Assembly: GCF_024298765.1 (NCBI RefSeq)
Contig: NZ_CP101210.1
From: Escherichia coli
Lineage (GTDB): Bacteria > Pseudomonadota > Gammaproteobacteria > Enterobacterales > Enterobacteriaceae
Length of the DNA: 64,000 nucleotides
Direction: 5' to 3' (one strand)
The translations under genes and the position numbers were made by a program. Of the stretch, positions 16,117 to 45,506 are shown in pieces; within the stretch, counting starts at the first letter, position 1; the number at the start of each line of letters is the position of its first letter. The notes below the pieces were generated by a model, which was given only the letters and a program-made list of their open reading frames with translations, was not told the origin of the DNA and made no database searches.

Positions 16117-16588
16117 ATTTGTATTTTGAGCAATGGCGGTAGAGTGGCGGTGGTGTGGCGATATGCAGAAACAATAATGGTGGTGCACGTGCTGTTTAAG
16201 CTCTAAGGATGAAGCAGAATTCTCCTGCAGCTCCTCCGTATTTCGCATAGTGAACCAAGACTTCGGTTAAACAAAATTTTTCTGGGATTTTTCCACTCGA
16301 CTTCATTTTTCCTCCAGTCATCCACCAAAGGTACCTGCGCTAATCTATCTTTTTTAATCTGACAACATCCTGAGAAAAGGCAAATTCGTCAGATTTACTG
16401 TTTTTTCTGCTGCTTCGAATGCCGATGTCTGCAGTACTGATAAGAGCTCTATCTCTTTGATATAGATCTTTTTTTTGATGAATTGCTCGACATATTATCG
16501 TTATGACACCTTCTTGTTAAAGGTGTTGTACTCCACATCTCGATTTTATGATGTGGGTTATGATTGGTTAGTAATAGAGTGTATCGGT

Positions 16589-16870
16589 ATGCGATGTGGT
16601 TTATTAATGGCAATATGCTTTTGTTTGGTATCTTTTAGTGGGTATGCAGCAACAGGAAAGTCTGATGTTCAGATCAAGAAAGAAATAATTAAAGAATCCA
16701 TTGAATCATATCCAGGCAATTGTGCGTGTCCTTATAATCATGCAAGGAATGGTAGTAGGTGTGGTGGACGCAGTGCATATAGCCGTACTGGAGGGTATGA
16801 TGTGGTATGTTATGAGAGTGATGTTACTGATGAAATGATCCGGCAATGGAAGCAGGAGAATGCTGATTAA
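16589..16870 (+). CDS. Hypothetical secreted cysteine-rich small protein (prophage moron)
   Basis: Signal peptide MRCGLLMAICFCLVSFSGYA followed by a Cys-rich mature region (GNCACPYNH...RCGG...VVCYESD); AT-rich. ORF finder extends it to 16475. Confidence 0.4.
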   Translation: MRCGLLMAICFCLVSFSGYAATGKSDVQIKKEIIKESIESYPGNCACPYNHARNGSRCGGRSAYSRTGGYDVVCYESDVTDEMIRQWKQENAD

Positions 16871-17061: not shown

Positions 17062-17202
17062 TTACTGCTTACACTGTAAGAACGCCGCAAACTCCGCTCC
17101 CCAGAAGCTCATCCGTATTTCACACAGCGAACCGTGCAGCATCCAGATGATGAGGATTACCGTCACGCAGAACGTGATGGCCGTAAGCGATTTTTGCGAC
17201 AT
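17062..17202 (-). CDS. Hok/Gef-family type I toxin-like small membrane peptide
   Basis: 46-aa translation MSQKSLTAITFCVTVILIIWMLHGSLCEIRMSFWGAEFAAFLQCKQ: TM helix followed by SLCEIR and E(F/V)AAF, the Hok family pattern. Confidence 0.55.
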   Translation of the reverse strand: MSQKSLTAITFCVTVILIIWMLHGSLCEIRMSFWGAEFAAFLQCKQ

Positions 17203-17383
17203 AGCGCTTGCTCCTTTTTAGGGGAGGCGCTAACCTATCACTTGCTAAGGTTAGATGGTTAGGGCCTCGGTTAAACAGAGATGTTTTCCGGGGCCTTTCC
17301 ACATCTGGCCTTCGGGCATACCCTCCGACCATCAGCCGAAAGGCACCCGCGCGTAATCTATCGTTTTTTTGTTGCTTCGGCAA
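17120..17383 (-). CDS. Mok-like overlapping reading frame (translational coupling frame for the hok-like gene)
   Basis: 87-aa ORF overlapping the hok-like gene in another frame, as in hok/mok/sok loci. Confidence 0.3.
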   Translation of the reverse strand: MPKQQKNDRLRAGAFRLMVGGYARRPDVERPRKTSLFNRGPNHLTLASDRLAPPLKRSKRYVAKIAYGHHVLRDGNPHHLDAARFAV

Positions 17384-17392
17384 TTCTGCTCG

Positions 17393-17653
17393 TTAATTCT
17401 GAGGTAAAGGCAAACTCATCTGATTGTTTCCCCTGTGTGACGTTGGCAGTTCATGCCACGGGATACCTTCTGAAGATCGAACGCCTGAGGTGTGTTTCGA
17501 TGTGAATTTATGGAAAGCTTCCAGTGTTGAGAAGCATACGCCGCATTCCAGGTTGTTACACTGGTAATACTTTTGTCGGACGGTGTTTGAATCATTTTCC
17601 GGACGACTTGTGCGGATACGGGCAGATGCGCCACAAAGCGGACAACGGAACAT
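17393..17653 (-). CDS. ogr: Ogr/Delta-family zinc-finger late-gene transcription activator
   Basis: MFRCPLCGASARIRTSRP...YYQCNNLECGVCFSTLE: Cys4 pattern and N-terminus resemble P2 Ogr. Confidence 0.8.
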   Translation of the reverse strand: MFRCPLCGASARIRTSRPENDSNTVRQKYYQCNNLECGVCFSTLEAFHKFTSKHTSGVRSSEGIPWHELPTSHRGNNQMSLPLPQN

Positions 17654-17896
17654 AGCAACCTCCCTTTAGGTGGTGCTATTCTAAACTTCATCAATGCAGA
17701 TTCCAACTCCTTCCCACTTTAAGCGAAGGATGGTGATAAAGTCAGAATATGTTAGATGAAGTCTAAACGGGCGATAAGTTTTCCAATATTTGAATAACAA
17801 CGTGGCAGGATTTTTGTTTATCAATTATCTTACACTTTTAAGTGTAATAAATTTGTTAGTGATGACAATATTGTGAGAGGAGATTATCAATTGAAG

Positions 17897-19360
17897 ATGG
17901 CAAAAAATAACAATGATAAAATGCGGGCAAAGTATAGGCCGTTCATAAATATATGGGAACATCTTCCTTCTGAGTTCAATGAACTCATCAAGACGTTAAT
18001 GGTGCTGATACGGCAAGGGGAAAATGTGGGAGCTCAGCAAAGGGAGCTTGATTCCATCGAAAACTTCAAACACCTGTTAAGTGGATGGAAGCGGGCGCAA
18101 AGGATCATAGCTGATGAACTCATTATCAGGCTTTCTCAAATCAAGGATCTGGAGTTAGAAAAGAATTGTGCCCATTCAAAAAAGGACTATGAAACAAAGA
18201 AGAAGTGTATACGCAATATTGAAAGGACTAGACTAGAAATTAGGATTTTACGTAGGTGCATTGATTCAATTGTATGGGCGATATTCCGCAATGAACACTC
18301 GTCTATAAGACGGTTACCTATAAATAGAAATACTGACAATCTGACAATATTTAATATACATGATTCAATGGTGGTAGCAGATGAAATCAATGCTGATCCG
18401 ATGGCTATAGCTGTTATCACTGATATTACTACGTTTGTACATACTGGTGATTTACTTGCGTTAATACCTCAGCAAGGCATAACTTTAATTGAAATAAAAA
18501 GTGGTAAGAAAAATATAGAGTTTTCAAAGGCGGCTATGTTCTCAGTGCAAAGTAAATGTCTTCATTTTGATGAGATTTATAGAAAAGACCTTGATAAAAA
18601 TGACTTGAAACACTATGACAGAGCTAAGCGTCAACTTAAAAGAGCTCAAAATGTGATAGATGTCATTGAAACTGGTAAGGGATTTGATAACTTTTTTCAG
18701 TCTCAAGTAACAATTCATGACAGAGATTTTTGTCCCGATTTTTATACAGATAAGATTATTGAGCTTTGGTATGAGATATATAACGGTAAAACTTGGGCGA
18801 TTACTGACATTAATGATTGTTTATTCCTTGGGGCATATATTAATTCTAATATGGGTTTTTGCGGTTTTAATGGATGGATGGAGGTATCTAGAATATCGGG
18901 GAGAGTGTTTAATATTCTTGATAGCTTTTCAGATGCTTTATCACGTCCATTTTTTAGTTTGAACCTACCTGATAAATTGCTTCTGGATATCATTAATGGC
19001 AATCTAATTGTTGTGCTGTGTTTCGATCATCGTCGTTTCGTAGAAAGAGCAAATAAAAAATACCCCGGGATTTATGAGTTATTGGACTTTCCATCTCCGA
19101 AGATTAATCCTATGAGTATGCTTTCCATCAATGGGAAGGGGGTAGTTTCTAGTGTTGATGGACAGAGTGTTTTTATTGGAAATGGTTACGAAACACGGAT
19201 TATTTTTGATCAGCAATATCCAGATAGTCTGATTAAGTGGTCATACCATATGAGTGATCTCAAAAAAAATATTGATAAAAAAAAGCGTAAAATGAAAAAG
19301 GAAACGCAAAGAAAAATAAAAGAGAAAAGAAAACGTAGCAGAAAACAATGCTTAAACTAA
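17897..19360 (+). CDS. Hypothetical 487-aa protein, AT-rich orphan moron between ogr and gpD (candidate accessory or defence gene)
   Basis: Long ORF in a very AT-rich island; RBS GAGAGGA upstream of ATG 17897 (ORF finder starts at GTG 17873); possible PD-(D/E)xK-like motif GD...EIK; Lys/Arg-rich C-terminus. Confidence 0.55.
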   Translation: MAKNNNDKMRAKYRPFINIWEHLPSEFNELIKTLMVLIRQGENVGAQQRELDSIENFKHLLSGWKRAQRIIADELIIRLSQIKDLELEKNCAHSKKDYETKKKCIRNIERTRLEIRILRRCIDSIVWAIFRNEHSSIRRLPINRNTDNLTIFNIHDSMVVADEINADPMAIAVITDITTFVHTGDLLALIPQQGITLIEIKSGKKNIEFSKAAMFSVQSKCLHFDEIYRKDLDKNDLKHYDRAKRQLKRAQNVIDVIETGKGFDNFFQSQVTIHDRDFCPDFYTDKIIELWYEIYNGKTWAITDINDCLFLGAYINSNMGFCGFNGWMEVSRISGRVFNILDSFSDALSRPFFSLNLPDKLLLDIINGNLIVVLCFDHRRFVERANKKYPGIYELLDFPSPKINPMSMLSINGKGVVSSVDGQSVFIGNGYETRIIFDQQYPDSLIKWSYHMSDLKKNIDKKKRKMKKETQRKIKEKRKRSRKQCLN

Positions 19361-19490
19361 CACATCTAATGCTTTAATTTGCTTTACTGTTACAATGTCC
19401 GCTTACTGGTACAGGGCGGACTGCCATATTAGATTTGGTTCTATCTCGTAAGAGTGGCCGTTCAGGTCTGCACTAATACATCTGAATGGT

Positions 19491-20600
19491 TCACTCTGTT
19501 TCTGCTATCCATTCCGGGATTTTTGCTTCAAGCTCAAGCTGAGTGGTAAAGCCGCTGTTATCAATGGTGTGCTCGGCTTTTGCAATAATCCAGTCCTGAT
19601 TATCAATCTCGCTTTTAAATCCTGTTACCGTGCCATGCATTTCGGGGAAGAGTTCTGCGCGTCCGCGTGCCAGTGTGATGGAGAATGATGCGGCTCCGCG
19701 TTGTAGTTGTTGCCACTTTGCCGCCGCTGCGCGTCTTGCTGCCTGCTCGTTCTGATAAGTCTTGCGTAACACAAACACATTGCCTTCCGCGCCTTCCATA
19801 TAATCACCTTCACGGCTGCTGCTTTTCTCTTTTTTCGGTTTTGGCGGTTTGCGGCGTTTCACGCTGACTTTTTTCTTTTTCCCGTAATTAAGATCAAGCC
19901 AGTAAGCGCGTACCCCCGTATACGCCTCGCGGTCAGCAATGCGGAACTGATGGCGATCGCCGCTGCTGCGTGTGATGGCGAACGATGGCAACGGCTGGCC
20001 CTGTGCGTTCACGCCACCGCCGGGCATGATGAATAACAGATTACCGCTTTTTACCGTGGTGATTGCGCCCAGCATTTCCGCCATGCGCGTAAGGAAGGAC
20101 ATGTCACTTTCTTCGGTCTGGTCGGCGTGGTCGATTTCGATATGCATCAGCATTTCGCTGATTTGCGGTTTCAGACCGTACCGATGAGCGATGGCGGATA
20201 CCACACGCTCAACGGTCACATCATGCCAGGACACCTCACGTTTAACGTTAAATTCATCCCGAAAATCTGCGCTTCTGGCTGAAACAGTCAGCCTGTCCGG
20301 CGGTCCTTCGTGTGCGATTTCATCGACAATGTAAGAGCCTTTTTCTGTCAGCGGTTCGCCTTTCCAGCCAATGAGAACCGTCAGGCGCGCGCCCCGTGGC
20401 GGTAGCCGCAACTGACCATCCGCATCATCCAGCGTGATGGTGAGCTGGTCTGCCTCAAATCCCCGGTTGTCGGTCAGCGACAGGCTCATCAGGCGCTCTG
20501 CCACGCCGGACAGCGTTTTACCCTCCGCGAGAATATCAAAATCCGGCATTTTTACGGGGTCTGTGCCCTGACTGAGCAATTGCATGGTGGTGTCGGTCAT
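19491..20600 (-). CDS. Tail protein gpD (P2 D homologue)
   Basis: Start at MTDTTMQLL with a GGGAGGG RBS; the ORF finder extends it to 20732. Confidence 0.8.
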   Translation of the reverse strand: MTDTTMQLLSQGTDPVKMPDFDILAEGKTLSGVAERLMSLSLTDNRGFEADQLTITLDDADGQLRLPPRGARLTVLIGWKGEPLTEKGSYIVDEIAHEGPPDRLTVSARSADFRDEFNVKREVSWHDVTVERVVSAIAHRYGLKPQISEMLMHIEIDHADQTEESDMSFLTRMAEMLGAITTVKSGNLLFIMPGGGVNAQGQPLPSFAITRSSGDRHQFRIADREAYTGVRAYWLDLNYGKKKKVSVKRRKPPKPKKEKSSSREGDYMEGAEGNVFVLRKTYQNEQAARRAAAAKWQQLQRGAASFSITLARGRAELFPEMHGTVTGFKSEIDNQDWIIAKAEHTIDNSGFTTQLELEAKIPEWIAETE

Positions 20601-20757
20601 CTGTTCCCTCCCTGTGCGGCATGGTCGCATGTGCGTGCGGCGGGGGTTACTGCTTTTTGTTGTCGCCGGGTCGGGAGAACGGCGCAGGGGTGAGATTACG
20701 CGCGTGGTGGGTGATGATTGTTGCCGAATCATTTAACGGATACAAGGGGCTGAAGCT

Positions 20758-21942
20758 ATGAGTGAAACTCGTTTTCATGGTGCCCGTGTTACGGAAAATA
20801 CCGACCTGGTAACAGCGATTAACGATGTTGATTCCAGCGTTATCGGTATCGTGGCAACGGCGGATGATGCGGACGCGAAGCTGTTCCCGCTGAACAAGCC
20901 CACACTGCTGACCCGCGTCAATGACGTGCTGGGAAAATGCGGGACAACGGGGACGCTTTATCGTGCGCTTAAGGCCATCGCAGACCAGGTGAGCACAAAG
21001 GTGATCGTCGTTCGCGTGGCTGAACACAAAGAAGAAGACGGAAAGACGCAGGATCAACTGGTTATCGGTGGTTCTGAGGATGACGGCAGCTATACGGGGA
21101 TGTATGCGCTGCTTGTTGCAGAGCAGGATGAAAGCATCGGATACCGTCCGCGTATTCTGGCCGCGCCGGAGCTGGACACGGAGGCGGTAACAAAATCCCT
21201 GTGCGTGATTGCGGGTAAACTGCGCGCGTTTGTGTATGCCTCATGTCACGGCTGTAACACGATGGCTGAGGCGATTACCTACCGCCAGAAATTCAACGAA
21301 CGTGAGGTGATGCTTTTATGGCCGGACTTCATCGCCTACAACCCGAAAAGTGGCAAAAACGAAACGTTCCCCGCGCCTGCCTATGCGTGCGGCCTTCGTG
21401 CGTACATTGACCATGAGCAGGGCTGGCACAAATCGCTGTCCAACGTTCCTGTTAAAAATGTGCTGGGAATGTCCAGGCATGTGTTCTGGTCGTTGCAGGC
21501 CGAAGACAGTGATGCCAACAGCCTCAACAACAAAGAAATCACGACCATTATTCGTCGCAACGGGTTCCGCTTCTGGGGCAACCGCACACCGGAAACGAAC
21601 GCCTACATCTTTGAGGTGTATACCCGAACCGCACAGGTGCTGGCTGATTCAATTGCGGAAGCGCAGTTTGAAACCATCGACAGTCCACTGACGCCTGCGA
21701 ACGTGAAGGATGTTATCAGTGCCATCAGGGCAAAACTGGATTCACTGGTTACTGCCGGGAAACTGATTGGCGCGGAGTGCTGGTATGACGTGGTGGATAA
21801 CAGCACCACGGATTTACGTCAGGGGCGTGTGCGTATTCGCTACAAATATACGCCTGTTCCGCCACTGGAAGACATGGAGCTTTACCAGACGTTTACTGAT
21901 GAATACTTTGAACCTGCATTTGCGGTGCTGGGAGGTGCCTGA
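20758..21942 (+). CDS. Contractile tail sheath protein (P2 FI homologue)
   Basis: 394 aa with conserved sheath motifs (RILAAPELDT, WPDF, IRRNGFRFWGNRT, YTPVPPLE). Confidence 0.9.
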   Translation: MSETRFHGARVTENTDLVTAINDVDSSVIGIVATADDADAKLFPLNKPTLLTRVNDVLGKCGTTGTLYRALKAIADQVSTKVIVVRVAEHKEEDGKTQDQLVIGGSEDDGSYTGMYALLVAEQDESIGYRPRILAAPELDTEAVTKSLCVIAGKLRAFVYASCHGCNTMAEAITYRQKFNEREVMLLWPDFIAYNPKSGKNETFPAPAYACGLRAYIDHEQGWHKSLSNVPVKNVLGMSRHVFWSLQAEDSDANSLNNKEITTIIRRNGFRFWGNRTPETNAYIFEVYTRTAQVLADSIAEAQFETIDSPLTPANVKDVISAIRAKLDSLVTAGKLIGAECWYDVVDNSTTDLRQGRVRIRYKYTPVPPLEDMELYQTFTDEYFEPAFAVLGGA

Positions 21943-22454
21943 TGGCTGTGCCAAAACATCTTCGCTTTTTTACGCTGTTTGTGGATGGTGAAAACGAAGT
22001 GGGTAAGGTGACGTCCGTCACTCTGCCTAAGCTGACGCGCAAAACCGACAGCTACCGGGGGGGTGGCATGATGGGTGCGGTAAGTATTGATCTCGGTCTG
22101 GACGACTCCGCGCTTGATGCGAGCTTTGTCATGGGGGGCGCAGTTCGTGAGCTGTTCCTGAAGTATGGCGGCACGATTGACGGCACGCTACTGCGTTTTG
22201 CGGGTGAATACTACACCGATGCAGAAAGCGACCTGTATGAAGTCGAAATGCGCGGACGTGTGACGGAAATTGATATGGGGGAAGCCAAACAGGGCGAAGC
22301 CACATCACACACTTACGCCATTAAAAACACCTACTACAAGCTGAGTGTTAACGATCGCCCGTTGTGGGAGATTGATCTGCTGAACTTCATTTACCGGAAG
22401 GACGGCAAGGACATTGTGCCCGATCGCATCCGTTCCGCGCTTGGGCTTGGCTGA
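21942..22454 (+). CDS. Tail tube protein (P2 FII homologue)
   Basis: 170 aa immediately after the sheath gene with an ATGA overlap. Confidence 0.85.
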   Translation: MAVPKHLRFFTLFVDGENEVGKVTSVTLPKLTRKTDSYRGGGMMGAVSIDLGLDDSALDASFVMGGAVRELFLKYGGTIDGTLLRFAGEYYTDAESDLYEVEMRGRVTEIDMGEAKQGEATSHTYAIKNTYYKLSVNDRPLWEIDLLNFIYRKDGKDIVPDRIRSALGLG

Positions 22455-22508
22455 TAAGTAATATGCAGGCGGCGCAGTGCGTCGCCTCTGACTGAAAGGA
22501 GTTTCCTG

Positions 22509-22874
22509 ATGAAAGAGACGAAAAACATCGATACCGAAAACACGGTAGTTACTGACACTGTGAAAGAAACCAGTGAGCGTGGCGTAAAACTTACCCAACC
22601 AATTGAGCGAGGCGGCGAAAAAATCACGTATGTGGATATCACCGGGGCTATTGAGCAGGCTGGATCTCTGCGAGATTTGTCGCTGTCTGATGTGCTGAAT
22701 CTGAAAGCGGAATCCATGTTTACGCTGCTGTCACGCGTGACATCACCGCGACTGGATGAAGTGACGATCAAAAAAATGGCATCCCGTGACTTTATTCAGT
22801 TATGTGTGGTTGCCGTAAATTTTTTGAGCGGTGCGGACTCTGGCGGGAAGAACGAACAGGCGACGGAAGCCTGA
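22509..22874 (+). CDS. Tail assembly chaperone gpE
   Basis: Small ORF between tube and tape measure containing the T6G slippery site. Confidence 0.7.
   Translation: MKETKNIDTENTVVTDTVKETSERGVKLTQPIERGGEKITYVDITGAIEQAGSLRDLSLSDVLNLKAESMFTLLSRVTSPRLDEVTIKKMASRDFIQLCVVAVNFLSGADSGGKNEQATEA
22820..22826 (+). other. Programmed -1 ribosomal frameshift slippery heptamer TTTTTTG (E to E+E')
   Basis: TTTTTTG inside gpE; the -1 frame continues as FFERCGLW... to 23038. Confidence 0.5.
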
Positions 22875-42448: not shown

Positions 42449-42870
42449 CGCGCTTCGCTTGTCTGCTGCTTCGCCGGGGCATAAAAAATTTATGCCCCGA
42501 CTCTCCAGCTCCTGTATCAGTCAGATAATTTCACGACGCTTTCCTGCTGATTGCCATCATCGACAGTCAGACTCTTACGCAATCCCACCGCGTTGACTGC
42601 ATGTTCTCGCCGTCTCAGTGCGATTTTGACGGCCTTACCTTTCACCCCATCAAATCAAAAGCCCTCACGTCTTTTTCACGCTCAGCGTGAGAAATACAGC
42701 CATTCTGTTGTGTCGCTGCGACATCGTTCAGGGGATGCTATTTACCCCCTGAAACGCGGGCTGTTCCCCCGTCACCTGCGCGCAGAAAAAATGCGTTTTT
42801 TTGTGCACGCACGGATCCTTGACGGATCCAGCCACCATGCGGGCCGGAAGGGCAAAAAGTCGTTCAAAAA

Positions 42871-42909
42871 AATTGTGCAAATTTGTGCACTATTGTGCAT
42901 TTGTATAGT
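42871..42909 (+). promoter_or_regulatory. Iterated TTGTGCA repeats and candidate -10 (TATAGT) upstream of the cargo operon
   Basis: aaTTGTGCAaatTTGTGCActaTTGTGCAtttgTATAGTg: three copies at about 10-11 bp spacing followed by a -10-like hexamer. Confidence 0.4.
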
Positions 42910-42978
42910 GAAAAAAATATAGCAGAAAGTATACTTAGCGCCTTGTGGGCTACGTTAACTTTGCAGGAACATTTGGAA

Positions 42979-44358
42979 ATGAAAAAAATCAATAAAGAAG
43001 ATTCTAAAAGAACCTTTTTACGTGGATGGTTGCGATTTCTTCGTAGCGTTGAGAGAGCTAAGAAAAAAAAGCCTGCGCAAGAGAAAAATGGTAGTCTTCG
43101 TTTTTCCGATGAAACAACTCCTGTCCAAAACCAAGTCGCTACGTTCATTGAAAATATATCGATTATAAAAGAGTATGACTCATCAATTCTTCGTCGTGAC
43201 GCAGAGAAGATATTAATACCTAAATATTTTGACTTATATGACAATCCAGAGAAATCTCTGCTATTTATTAGTGCAGCCACAAAATTAATTGCAAGAGGTA
43301 AATGGAAATCATATATTTTTGATTACAAGAAAAACAAAAAACACTGTCTTGGTCTTGAGTGTCTATTAGGTGTTGCTCTTACAGCAGCAAGGCAAAGTAA
43401 TATAAATTTCAAAGATACGATGATTCAGATTAATGGTATCTACCCTAAAGATGAACAGTATCTTGAAATTATCAGGGATGTCGGGCTTGTAAAAGAGATT
43501 AGTAATGCTGCACCAGGTAAAGTTCTGGACTCTACTGAAGCATCGAAAAAAGCGAATCCGAAGAAACGAATCTTCTCTGCTGATAGTATCGGAAAGGAGA
43601 ATGCTTCTGCCTTTGCCCATGACAGAAAAAATGTCACTGCTGAAAAATTTACCGCATACATAAACGAATGCTTAAATGATCATAATTTAAAACTTGTACA
43701 TGAGGCAGAAAAGCATTTAACTTCCTGCATGGGGGAACTCCTTGATAATGCGGAGCGGCATTGTGGGTTAGAGCAACGCCCACGCTGGTATTTGAGAGGT
43801 TTTGTTAATAATAACGTACGAAACCCCATATGTGAGTTGGCTGTTTTCAATTTTGGGAAAACTATCAGCGAAACTTTTGATAATTTACCTGAGGATCATT
43901 TTTCATTAAGTCAACAAGTTAATCCATACATAAATAAGCATATTAAGAAAAAGGGTATGTTTAAGGAAGGATTAACAACAGTAGCGGCCTTGCAAGGGCG
44001 GGTGAGTTGTAAAAACGAGAAAGAAACTGACAGTTCTGGCACCGGAACAATTGAATTATTGAAGTTATTTCAAGATATGCATGATAATCTTAAAAAAATG
44101 GGAAGAGATATTAAAGGTGGGATAAAAATGACTTTAATATCTGGTAGTACTCATATTAACTTTGATGGATCATATAAATTAAAGCAAAGGTTGGTTAATG
44201 ACGAGGAAAGTGACATTTTTACTTACCCTTTTAATGATGTAGGGCTTGAATCTGAACCGGATCGCAACTATCTTAAGCGTATGAAGGATGCTCGATTTCC
44301 TGGAGTTATGATCAATATTCGTTTTCCTCTACCAGAAAACGCCACCCAGCGAACTTGA
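42979..44358 (+). CDS. Hypothetical protein with C-terminal GHKL-type (histidine kinase/SpoIIAB-like) ATPase domain; candidate defence gene A
   Basis: N-box-like ELLDNAERH, G-box-like DSSGTGTIELL, terminal GG...G...FPLP typical of HATPase_c; AT-rich; RBS AGGAAC before ATG 42979 (ORF finder starts at 42883). Confidence 0.55.
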   Translation: MKKINKEDSKRTFLRGWLRFLRSVERAKKKKPAQEKNGSLRFSDETTPVQNQVATFIENISIIKEYDSSILRRDAEKILIPKYFDLYDNPEKSLLFISAATKLIARGKWKSYIFDYKKNKKHCLGLECLLGVALTAARQSNINFKDTMIQINGIYPKDEQYLEIIRDVGLVKEISNAAPGKVLDSTEASKKANPKKRIFSADSIGKENASAFAHDRKNVTAEKFTAYINECLNDHNLKLVHEAEKHLTSCMGELLDNAERHCGLEQRPRWYLRGFVNNNVRNPICELAVFNFGKTISETFDNLPEDHFSLSQQVNPYINKHIKKKGMFKEGLTTVAALQGRVSCKNEKETDSSGTGTIELLKLFQDMHDNLKKMGRDIKGGIKMTLISGSTHINFDGSYKLKQRLVNDEESDIFTYPFNDVGLESEPDRNYLKRMKDARFPGVMINIRFPLPENATQRT

Positions 44359-44368
44359 GGACAGGTAC

Positions 44369-44713
44369 ATGAAAATGGCTGACATCACCATAGATTTCAA
44401 TAAGTTAGTAAAAGATAGTAACAAGAAACTTTTTGCTGGACGTTCTAATGGGCGCCAGGCCTATGATTACTTTAATATAGGGAAATTTTGCACAACCAGT
44501 AATGATAGATTATATCTATTGATCCCCAAGGGAATTGTTGTATCAAGCTCATACTTTCTAGGTATGCTTGAAACGGTTTTGCCGAAATTTTCTTCGCCTA
44601 GCGAATTTTATAGTCGCACTGTACTTGATGGTCGTGAATATAAAGAAGGTATGCTTTCTGAATTAGATAGAGCTGTAAGGAGAGGCTTACATAAAAATGT
44701 TCCCTTCTTTTAA
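44369..44713 (+). CDS. Small protein, possibly STAS/anti-sigma-antagonist-like; candidate defence gene B
   Basis: 114 aa immediately after the ATPase gene; IVVSSSYFLGMLE resembles the STAS core; very tentative. Confidence 0.4.
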   Translation: MKMADITIDFNKLVKDSNKKLFAGRSNGRQAYDYFNIGKFCTTSNDRLYLLIPKGIVVSSSYFLGMLETVLPKFSSPSEFYSRTVLDGREYKEGMLSELDRAVRRGLHKNVPFF

Positions 44714-45506
44714 AAATATTTTTCAAATCAAAATGACAGCGCTGTCTGTCATTTTTTTTATATTCCCCGCAGCTTGCTCTGTGACAGATTTTTCCAATAA
44801 AGAAAACATTGAATGTAATGAGTCACTTTATCCAAACACGCCTTTTTATATTTCCGATTCAGGACTTAGTGGTATATCATCACCGTTTTTGTTATCCGGA
44901 AACCCGAATGATGGCTTGATGTTTTGTGAAAAGGCAAACGACACCTTTCATAAGTTATCTCTGGCAAGGGATAACAAAAAAGATTTATTTACTAATTATT
45001 TCAAAGATGTTCCAAATTCCTATGATATATATAATATTGTAAAGGTTCCGGAAAATGGTCCAGAGTGGATTTCTATTGGCATCTCTTTATTTGCTTTAGT
45101 TTCATCCTTTGTTATTCCTTGTGTTCAACATAGAAAAGAACGTAAAGAAGCTATTAATGAAGGGTATTGGGTAAGAGAAGTAATTATGCCTAAAATTAAT
45201 GGGTTGGCATTCGATGTTGTGCAAAGTTTTAAAAACTCCATGGCATTATCAGAAGAGGAGTTTCTTAGTGTATTCAGTAATACTCTTTTACCAAAACTAG
45301 GAGAGTTACGGGATTCATTATATTTGTTTAATAGTTTTCCAGAATTAAATGCAGATATTGAAAATCTAGAAAGTATTTGTGACTCCTTGGAGGAAGAAGT
45401 TTCCAATCATATAGACTCGCCTAATGAAATAAGAATTTCTGATATATCAATGTTTCATTCCAAATTAATACAGAAATTAATTTTACTTCATAAGAAGATA
45501 GGTTGA
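44697..45506 (+). CDS. Membrane-anchored protein; candidate defence gene C (possible effector)
   Basis: Overlaps gene B by 17 nt; hydrophobic N-terminus (MTALSVIFFIFPAACS) and a central TM helix (WISIGISLFALVSSFVIPCV). Confidence 0.45.
   Translation: MFPSFKNIFQIKMTALSVIFFIFPAACSVTDFSNKENIECNESLYPNTPFYISDSGLSGISSPFLLSGNPNDGLMFCEKANDTFHKLSLARDNKKDLFTNYFKDVPNSYDIYNIVKVPENGPEWISIGISLFALVSSFVIPCVQHRKERKEAINEGYWVREVIMPKINGLAFDVVQSFKNSMALSEEEFLSVFSNTLLPKLGELRDSLYLFNSFPELNADIENLESICDSLEEEVSNHIDSPNEIRISDISMFHSKLIQKLILLHKKIG

Follow-up and report, generated by a model that had tools for sequence, protein, structure and literature searches.

The window examined here, a 64,000-nucleotide stretch of Escherichia coli DNA (contig NZ_CP101210.1), has a chromosomal backbone that runs through uvrY-uvrC-pgsA to the tRNA-Gly/Cys/Leu genes; downstream of the tRNAs lies a P2-family prophage, which extends to an integrase gene at ~53.3 kb and is followed by yecA/tyrP. 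The prophage is P88-like (Xuanwuvirus, Peduoviridae) and is sited at leuZ: its ogr is 92-95% identical to those of the phages P88, Chuche, 500465-2 and P88_4B11, all of genus Xuanwuvirus, and its gpD is 95-97% identical to the D of P88-like phages. Between these two core genes is a long open reading frame (ORF), termed here the cargo gene, which is the subject of this report. The locus is arranged as follows.

17393..17653, minus strand: ogr, late-gene activator and left core gene of the slot; an ORF, annotated as an ogr/Delta-like zinc finger protein in identical prophages.
17678..19490, no strand: inserted cargo cassette, 1813 bp, GC content 0.352, not in the reference Xuanwuvirus phages; ends placed by BLAST breakpoints against three of these.
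17897..19360, plus strand: coding sequence of the cargo protein, 487 amino acids (aa), from ATG 17897 to TAA 19360; the same coding sequence is annotated by NCBI in identical prophages, as WP_038820202.1.
19491..20600, minus strand: gpD (tail/late control D), right core gene of the slot; an ORF, its start picked by analogy with phage Chuche.

The ORF lies exactly where a first-pass annotation of the sequence had placed it, on the strand opposite to both ogr and gpD, and the AT-rich island noticed there is borne out by comparison with the flanking genes: GC is 0.350 and GC at third codon positions 0.322, as against 0.475-0.575 and mostly 0.54-0.62 (ogr 0.46, H 0.49) for the adjacent phage genes. 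Only 42 bp separate ogr from D in the reference phages P88, Chuche and P88_4B11, so that relative to these phages the 1813-bp segment is inserted, as had been supposed. The cargo gene is a mobile accessory gene of foreign, AT-rich composition, set apart from the late genes around it by its opposite orientation, and 17678-19490 is best explained as a cargo cassette of one gene (a "moron"), acquired horizontally by a P88-like P2-family prophage in a polymorphic bay between its ogr and gpD. The translation start may need adjusting: a TTG at 17891, 8 nt after a GGAG (17879-17882), has better Shine-Dalgarno spacing than the ATG at 17897 and reproduces the N-terminal length of the homologues, so the protein is perhaps 489 aa long.

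How commonly the slot is filled was determined by a survey of 5426 complete E. coli genomes. This ogr/D pair is present in 1234 of them; the two genes are contiguous, the junction empty, in 728, an unrelated gene for a 340-aa hypothetical protein occupies it in 65, and 16 have the complete 487-aa cargo gene, intact and 99.5-99.9% identical from one genome to another. In all, ~40% of the 1234 do not show the empty junction. A further copy of the cargo gene, the only one of its kind examined (L003, NZ_CM132249.1), is cut by IS1 after ~700 nt in a decayed prophage: the rest of the prophage is gone, and only ogr, hok and a restriction-endonuclease fragment are left before yecA. Two other genomes (H74, H75), in which the match is limited to the 5' half of the cassette, may resemble it. 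Other occupants sampled are a DUF2971 gene, a SEC-C-type "YecA family" gene and a four-gene hxsDBCA cluster; five occupied junctions were examined and five different cargoes found.

The ends of the cassette carry two features that bear on how cargo is accommodated.

17678..17706, minus strand: promoter-like site for ogr, TTGGAA-17 nt-TAGAAT, found by consensus scan.
19392..19490, no strand: right flank of the cassette, with a hairpin GTCCGC...GCGGAC at 19397-19421, delimited by BLAST and alignment.

Of the two hexamers of the ogr site, the -10 belongs to the backbone and the -35 to the left end of the insert. In five unrelated cassettes (that of the window and those of L002, L016, L017 and L018) the sequence (T/A/C)TCCAA is kept, exactly 17 nt from ATTCTA, whereas empty-site phages have CTGCTA or CCGCTA at the position of the first hexamer; insertions therefore appear to supply the -35 of the ogr promoter. 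At the other end, the right ~100 bp of the insert, hairpin included, are common to the cassette with the 340-aa gene (L002), at ~92% identity. Since the flanks are kept while the cargoes differ, the slot looks like a cargo bay whose contents are exchanged by recombination. In P2 the gpA-gpQ interval is the sole hotspot described by Rousset et al. 2022 (PMC9122126), and a 2026 preprint lists further minor hotspots, ogr not being named among them; new systems may thus also be sought at the ogr-D junction of P88-like phages.

The cargo protein is not the orphan it was first taken for. A word-indexed search found homologues in 34 clusters from Enterobacterales, Aeromonas and Pseudomonas, at 33-74% identity over >90% of the length, and an exhaustive HMMER search returned 470 representatives (clusters at 50% identity) at E <= 1e-3, 253 of them at E <= 1e-10. 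Most are 440-500 aa long, a few having N-terminal extensions of ~200 aa, and conservation covers the whole length of the protein. Foldseek against AFDB50 gave 160 matches in Proteobacteria, Bacteroidota, Firmicutes, Myxococcota and candidate phyla, almost all named "Uncharacterized"; the source names of the distant family clusters are all "hypothetical". A tblastn search of the cargo protein against 50,697 phage records gave no match, and a literature search for accession WP_038820202 found nothing. The family is unnamed in the libraries searched and its predicted structure is without a solved relative; its kind, prophage hotspot cargo and single-gene nuclease defence, is already known.

Alignments of diverse members, one of 60 sequences (A2) and one of 70 (A4), reaching down to ~20% identity, show D176, D185, E199, K201, G203, R242 and Q246 to be invariant in both sets, and P442 in one. 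D185, E199 and K201, which lie in the segment GDLLALIPQQGITLIEIK, are thus invariant in 130 diverse homologues. AlphaFold2 modelled the full-length protein with a predicted local distance difference test score (pLDDT) of 87.3 and a predicted template-modelling score of 0.84, and residues 128-458 with a pLDDT of 88.5. The parts of the protein, all on the plus strand, are these.

18053..18283: predicted long antiparallel helical hairpin, residues 53-129.
18344..18676: predicted alpha-beta-beta-beta-alpha core with the invariant residues, residues 150-260, from secondary structure and alignments A2/A4.
18422..18499: D-x8-D-x13-E-x-K motif (TDITTFVHTGDLLALIPQQGITLIEIK), residues 176-201, from the alignments.
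18677..19252: conserved C-terminal alpha/beta domain, residues 261-452, model pLDDT ~80-97.
19259..19357: Lys/Arg-rich helical tail, residues 455-487.
19277..19284: A8 homopolymer in the tail-coding region, its length varying between genomes.

In the predicted core a helix (151-165) is followed by strands at 171-174, 186-190 and 194-198 and by a second helix (204-219). D185 comes directly before the strand 186-190 and E199-x-K201 directly after the strand 194-198, in a predicted hairpin; further predicted helices carry R242 and Q246, and the alpha/beta domain, with conserved residues G262, D264, G312, Y314, P351, G430 and P442, continues to about residue 450. In the model, the placement of D185, E199 and K201 fits that expected for a PD-(D/E)xK site, and the invariant D176, D185, E199-x-K201 and Q246 together have the layout of the site of a PD-(D/E)xK metal-dependent nuclease, an activity which the protein may accordingly be suspected of having. 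One remote relative in AFDB, A0A1F9DCY9 (template-modelling score 0.71), is named a Cap4-like endonuclease, a weak pointer in the same direction. A reading of the N-terminal region as HEPN, the name borne by one AFDB relative, was rejected, there being neither an Rx4-6H motif nor a profile match.

The highly basic C-terminus described at first pass is present (18 K/R in the last 32 residues) and is confined to the enterobacterial subfamily, being absent from P0033, P0034 and the wider family. The A8 tract that encodes part of it is A8 in the window, L001, L026 and L027, A7 in L028, L044 and L045, and A6 in L029; A7 or A6 shifts the frame and the Lys/Arg-rich tail is lost, the A7 form being annotated as the 465-aa protein WP_001107526.1. 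In 7 of the 16 complete E. coli genomes the span is 1 nt shorter. Being lineage-specific and lost in those 7, the tail is unlikely to be essential. The variation in length may be true slippage (phase variation) or homopolymer sequencing error.

IMG/VR has 18 viral contigs that encode members, and marker BLAST of P2-like contigs places the family in at least six kinds of cargo slot: ogr-D (L026-29); U to tail fibre (L030, also the Raoultella loci L010-12); after D (L031); V-S (L032, L038, also the Enterobacter locus L005); directly after int, between int and ogr (L033-37); and beside the portal gene Q, that is, the gpA/gpQ or old/tin hotspot (L039, L041). In L038 (7887-9463) the gene is split in two ORFs, likely a frameshift or a pseudogene. 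Plasmids and chromosomal islands have members too. From slot to slot the non-coding flanks show no conservation, so the gene has no transposon-like ends. A distant member (~25% identity) stands alone, on the opposite strand, in a phage replication module with PIF1 helicase, VRR_NUC, DEAD helicase and SSB genes (L052, L053), so that the moron-like habit reaches beyond P2-like phages.

Three unrelated defence or candidate-defence genes are found immediately upstream of family members, on the same strand and separated from them by gaps of 18-90 bp. In a Klebsiella pneumoniae prophage and a second phage-like element the neighbour is AbiH (PADLOC E 1e-26 to 5e-29); in plasmid-like contigs of Pantoea it is an Abi_2 protein matching PD-T4-5 and also AbiD (E 1e-31), with a gap of 18 bp; and in a Dickeya island that also has Fic and PDDEXK_4 genes it is a DUF3644 protein matching PDC-S19 (E 8e-71). 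As a qualitative observation, then, the family has the generic mark of defence genes, occurrence in defence hotspots and next to other defence genes. Location and neighbours make a defence role of the cargo gene likely, in keeping with the candidacy proposed at first pass.

We favour the view, with a probability that we put at about 0.55 on the basis of sequence, predicted structure and genomic location, that the cargo gene is a candidate lysogen-expressed, single-protein, nuclease-type anti-phage function. The lysogen would produce the protein from the gene's own signals, the gene running against the late genes, and the product would act as a self-contained nuclease-type anti-phage protein; its non-catalytic domains would hold the nuclease silent until a cue from infection arrived, and the triggered enzyme would cut the nucleic acid of the invader or, in an abortive mode, that of the cell.

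A number of results speak against this proposal. The consensus scan found no sigma-70 promoter on the plus strand upstream of the cargo ORF. Searches of PADLOC, PHROGs, NCBIfam and Pfam with the query protein gave nothing significant, so that the first-pass statement that no family could be recognised still holds; profile searches (PADLOC, NCBIfam, Pfam) of 10 distant members and of the hidden Markov model consensus returned no nuclease or defence model, and those of the 60 + 70 aligned members nothing save two weak matches to SduA_C (2 of 130 members, E ~0.03), possibly due to chance. When the full model was compared with solved structures only the helical hairpin was matched, and no nuclease; with the core-only model, from which the hairpin had been removed, there was still no nuclease, and the C-terminal domain had no structural match. 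Finally, location in a hotspot is only suggestive, the ogr-D slot also holding cargo without evident defence role, such as the Hxs cluster.

The profile and fold results bear on the possibility that the D/E/K residues do not form a nuclease site and that the protein is a new fold with other chemistry, or with binding activity only. Two confident models are without significant match to any solved PD-(D/E)xK enzyme, the query and the consensus match no PD-(D/E)xK clan profile in Pfam, and sequence searches of the PDB with the profiles A1-A4 gave only low-complexity or chance matches. Of what defines the PD-(D/E)xK group, the conserved acidic...D...(D/E)xK residues are present and significant similarity to a solved member was not found; the PD-(D/E)xK-like motif of the first-pass annotation thus stands as regards its invariant D, E and K and their position in the expected predicted hairpin, and lacks the solved nuclease that fold searches might have supplied. 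We nevertheless think it quite unlikely that the site is not nucleolytic: spacing, placement relative to the strands and absolute invariance of D...ExK and of the downstream Q are typical of PD-(D/E)xK, and the one remote relative with a Cap4-like name is a nuclease by that name. A nuclease could also serve ends other than defence. Accessory cargo acting in DNA repair or recombination, as a regulator or as some other aid to prophage or host might share the same recombination-prone slots, as hxsDBCA and the SEC-C-type and DUF2971 proteins, none known as defence, share the ogr-D slot; umuDC or SRAP DNA-damage genes are found close to some homologues, and no defence model matches the protein. This has some claim to attention and is, on balance, unlikely: three unrelated genes of known or candidate defence function recur next to the family, at 90 bp or less and in the same orientation, and the family occupies the classical old/tin hotspot as well.

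The same upstream neighbours raise the question whether the protein is a partner or accessory module of an Abi-type gene; in E. coli one half of the pair would then stand by itself, its activity lowered or altered. Members of the 463-464-aa subfamilies and the Dickeya gene do trail AbiH, Abi_2 (PD-T4-5/AbiD) or PDC-S19. But in P2-like phages the gene is alone in at least six slots, often facing the other way from its neighbours, and the lone E. coli gene is intact and near-identical in its 16 carriers; moreover, because the upstream partners belong to three unrelated families, stacking in islands is favoured over a fixed pair, and we consider this explanation improbable. Least credible is a selfish, homing-endonuclease-like gene that spreads by cutting empty sites in related phages to no benefit of the host. 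A lone ORF with a nuclease-type motif at several intergenic phage positions would suit such a gene, as would the short imperfect repeats of empty-site sequence found at both ends of the insert. A free-standing homing gene would be tied to one target site that it cleaves in empty alleles; the sites used by this family are many and different. Unrelated cargo, however, fills the same slot with the same boundaries and with flanks common to several cassettes; the family also resides in plasmids and chromosomal islands, its non-coding flanks differ between slots, and its members are three-part proteins of ~450 aa conserved across phyla. Taken together these points leave homing very improbable, and the candidate anti-phage nuclease the reading that we retain.

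One of the closest known systems is Shedu (SduA; DUF4263/SduA_C, of PD-(D/E)xK type), which is likewise a single protein often encoded on mobile elements. Shedu/EndoMS motifs I-IV follow the order acidic-D-ExK-Q, paralleled by the cargo family, and Shedu joins a nuclease core to non-catalytic domains thought to gate its activity (PMC10441436), a layout that the cargo protein would share. The DUF4263/SduA_C profile of Pfam, PADLOC and NCBIfam is, in contrast, not detected in the query, the consensus or the distant members searched, and while the Shedu nuclease domain is C-terminal, after a variable sensor, the cargo core, at 150-260, has a conserved 200-aa domain after it. Cap4_nuclease/DUF4297, the domain for which A0A1F9DCY9 is named, is a PD-(D/E)xK effector nuclease of defence in CBASS and related systems, but there is neither a CD-NTase nor a SAVED partner at any cargo-family locus examined, nor a Cap4 profile match. 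The old, tin and Z/fun genes of P2 and other hotspot cargo (PD-T4-5, DprA-PRTase) are likewise non-essential, AT-rich, exchangeable cargo that P2-family prophages carry at fixed positions between core genes (PMC9122126; 10.1101/2024.10.15.618418); the cargo protein is unrelated to old, tin and fun in sequence, with no PHROG, Pfam or PADLOC match, and the ogr-D junction lies outside the two classical P2 hotspots, the family itself being present also in the gpA/gpQ old-tin slot.

The family pattern G-D-hhhh-x4-G-hhhh-E-h-K resembles what we take to be the NERD signature, a lead rather than a test; a NERD-type PD-(D/E)xK domain had no Pfam match at E <= 10.

A wider synthesis, which we offer tentatively and rate as somewhat short of an even chance, would combine these strands: a new, phylum-spanning family (~470 clusters) of single-protein anti-phage nucleases, having a fold without solved counterpart and sensing domains (the helical hairpin and the C-terminal alpha/beta domain) that would work by an undescribed mechanism; a basic tail that in E. 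coli would be switched by slippage at A8; and an ogr-D junction that would be a dedicated cargo bay, each cassette supplying the -35 of ogr. Should the protein prove protective against phages, a compact single-gene system would be added to the defence catalogue, one that PADLOC 2.0, Pfam and NCBIfam miss though it is present in Klebsiella, Escherichia, Pantoea, Pseudomonas and many other phyla; and a confident predicted structure without solved relative is a reasonable target for structural work on the gating of nuclease effectors.

Within the cassette there is one other feature upstream of the cargo gene.

17819..17858, no strand: imperfect inverted repeat, core TTACACTT/AAGTGTAA, ~40-80 bp 5' of the start codon, with 19-nt arms that are 79% complementary.

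It is a possible operator; no conservation of it was found upstream of homologues in other slots. An Rfam scan gave no match inside the cassette.

Several further observations concern the rest of the prophage. The gpD ORF (19491-20732) is open over 413 codons in the window, phage records listing 366-369 aa, and NCBI gives instead a truncated 266-aa "VgrG/Pvc8 family" protein and a small pseudogene in many identical prophages, probably an annotation artefact. In the P88-like lineage D is divergent from the FI-FII-E-T-U block, which in the window (20758-28573) runs against D; between the block and the tail-fibre genes come a 201-aa minus-strand ORF and two plus-strand ORFs, possibly an invertase and alternative fibre segments. 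The classical gpA-gpQ (old/tin) hotspot of the same prophage (42551-45506) is filled with AT-rich ORFs, at 42883-44358 (491 aa, GC 0.36) and 44697-45506 (269 aa, GC 0.32), and with a 123-aa ORF, none of them matching PADLOC. At the prophage edge, between tRNA-Leu and hok, an AT-rich ORF (16475-16870, GC 0.39) that had no PADLOC match encodes a Cys-rich protein of 131 aa whose N-terminus has a hydrophobic stretch; identical genomes carry the annotation of a shorter hypothetical protein there. Just outside ogr, near the end of the prophage (17062-17348), lies a hok/gef-type toxin gene, annotated in identical prophages, with a sok-like antisense RNA match of 42.7 bits, below the gathering threshold.

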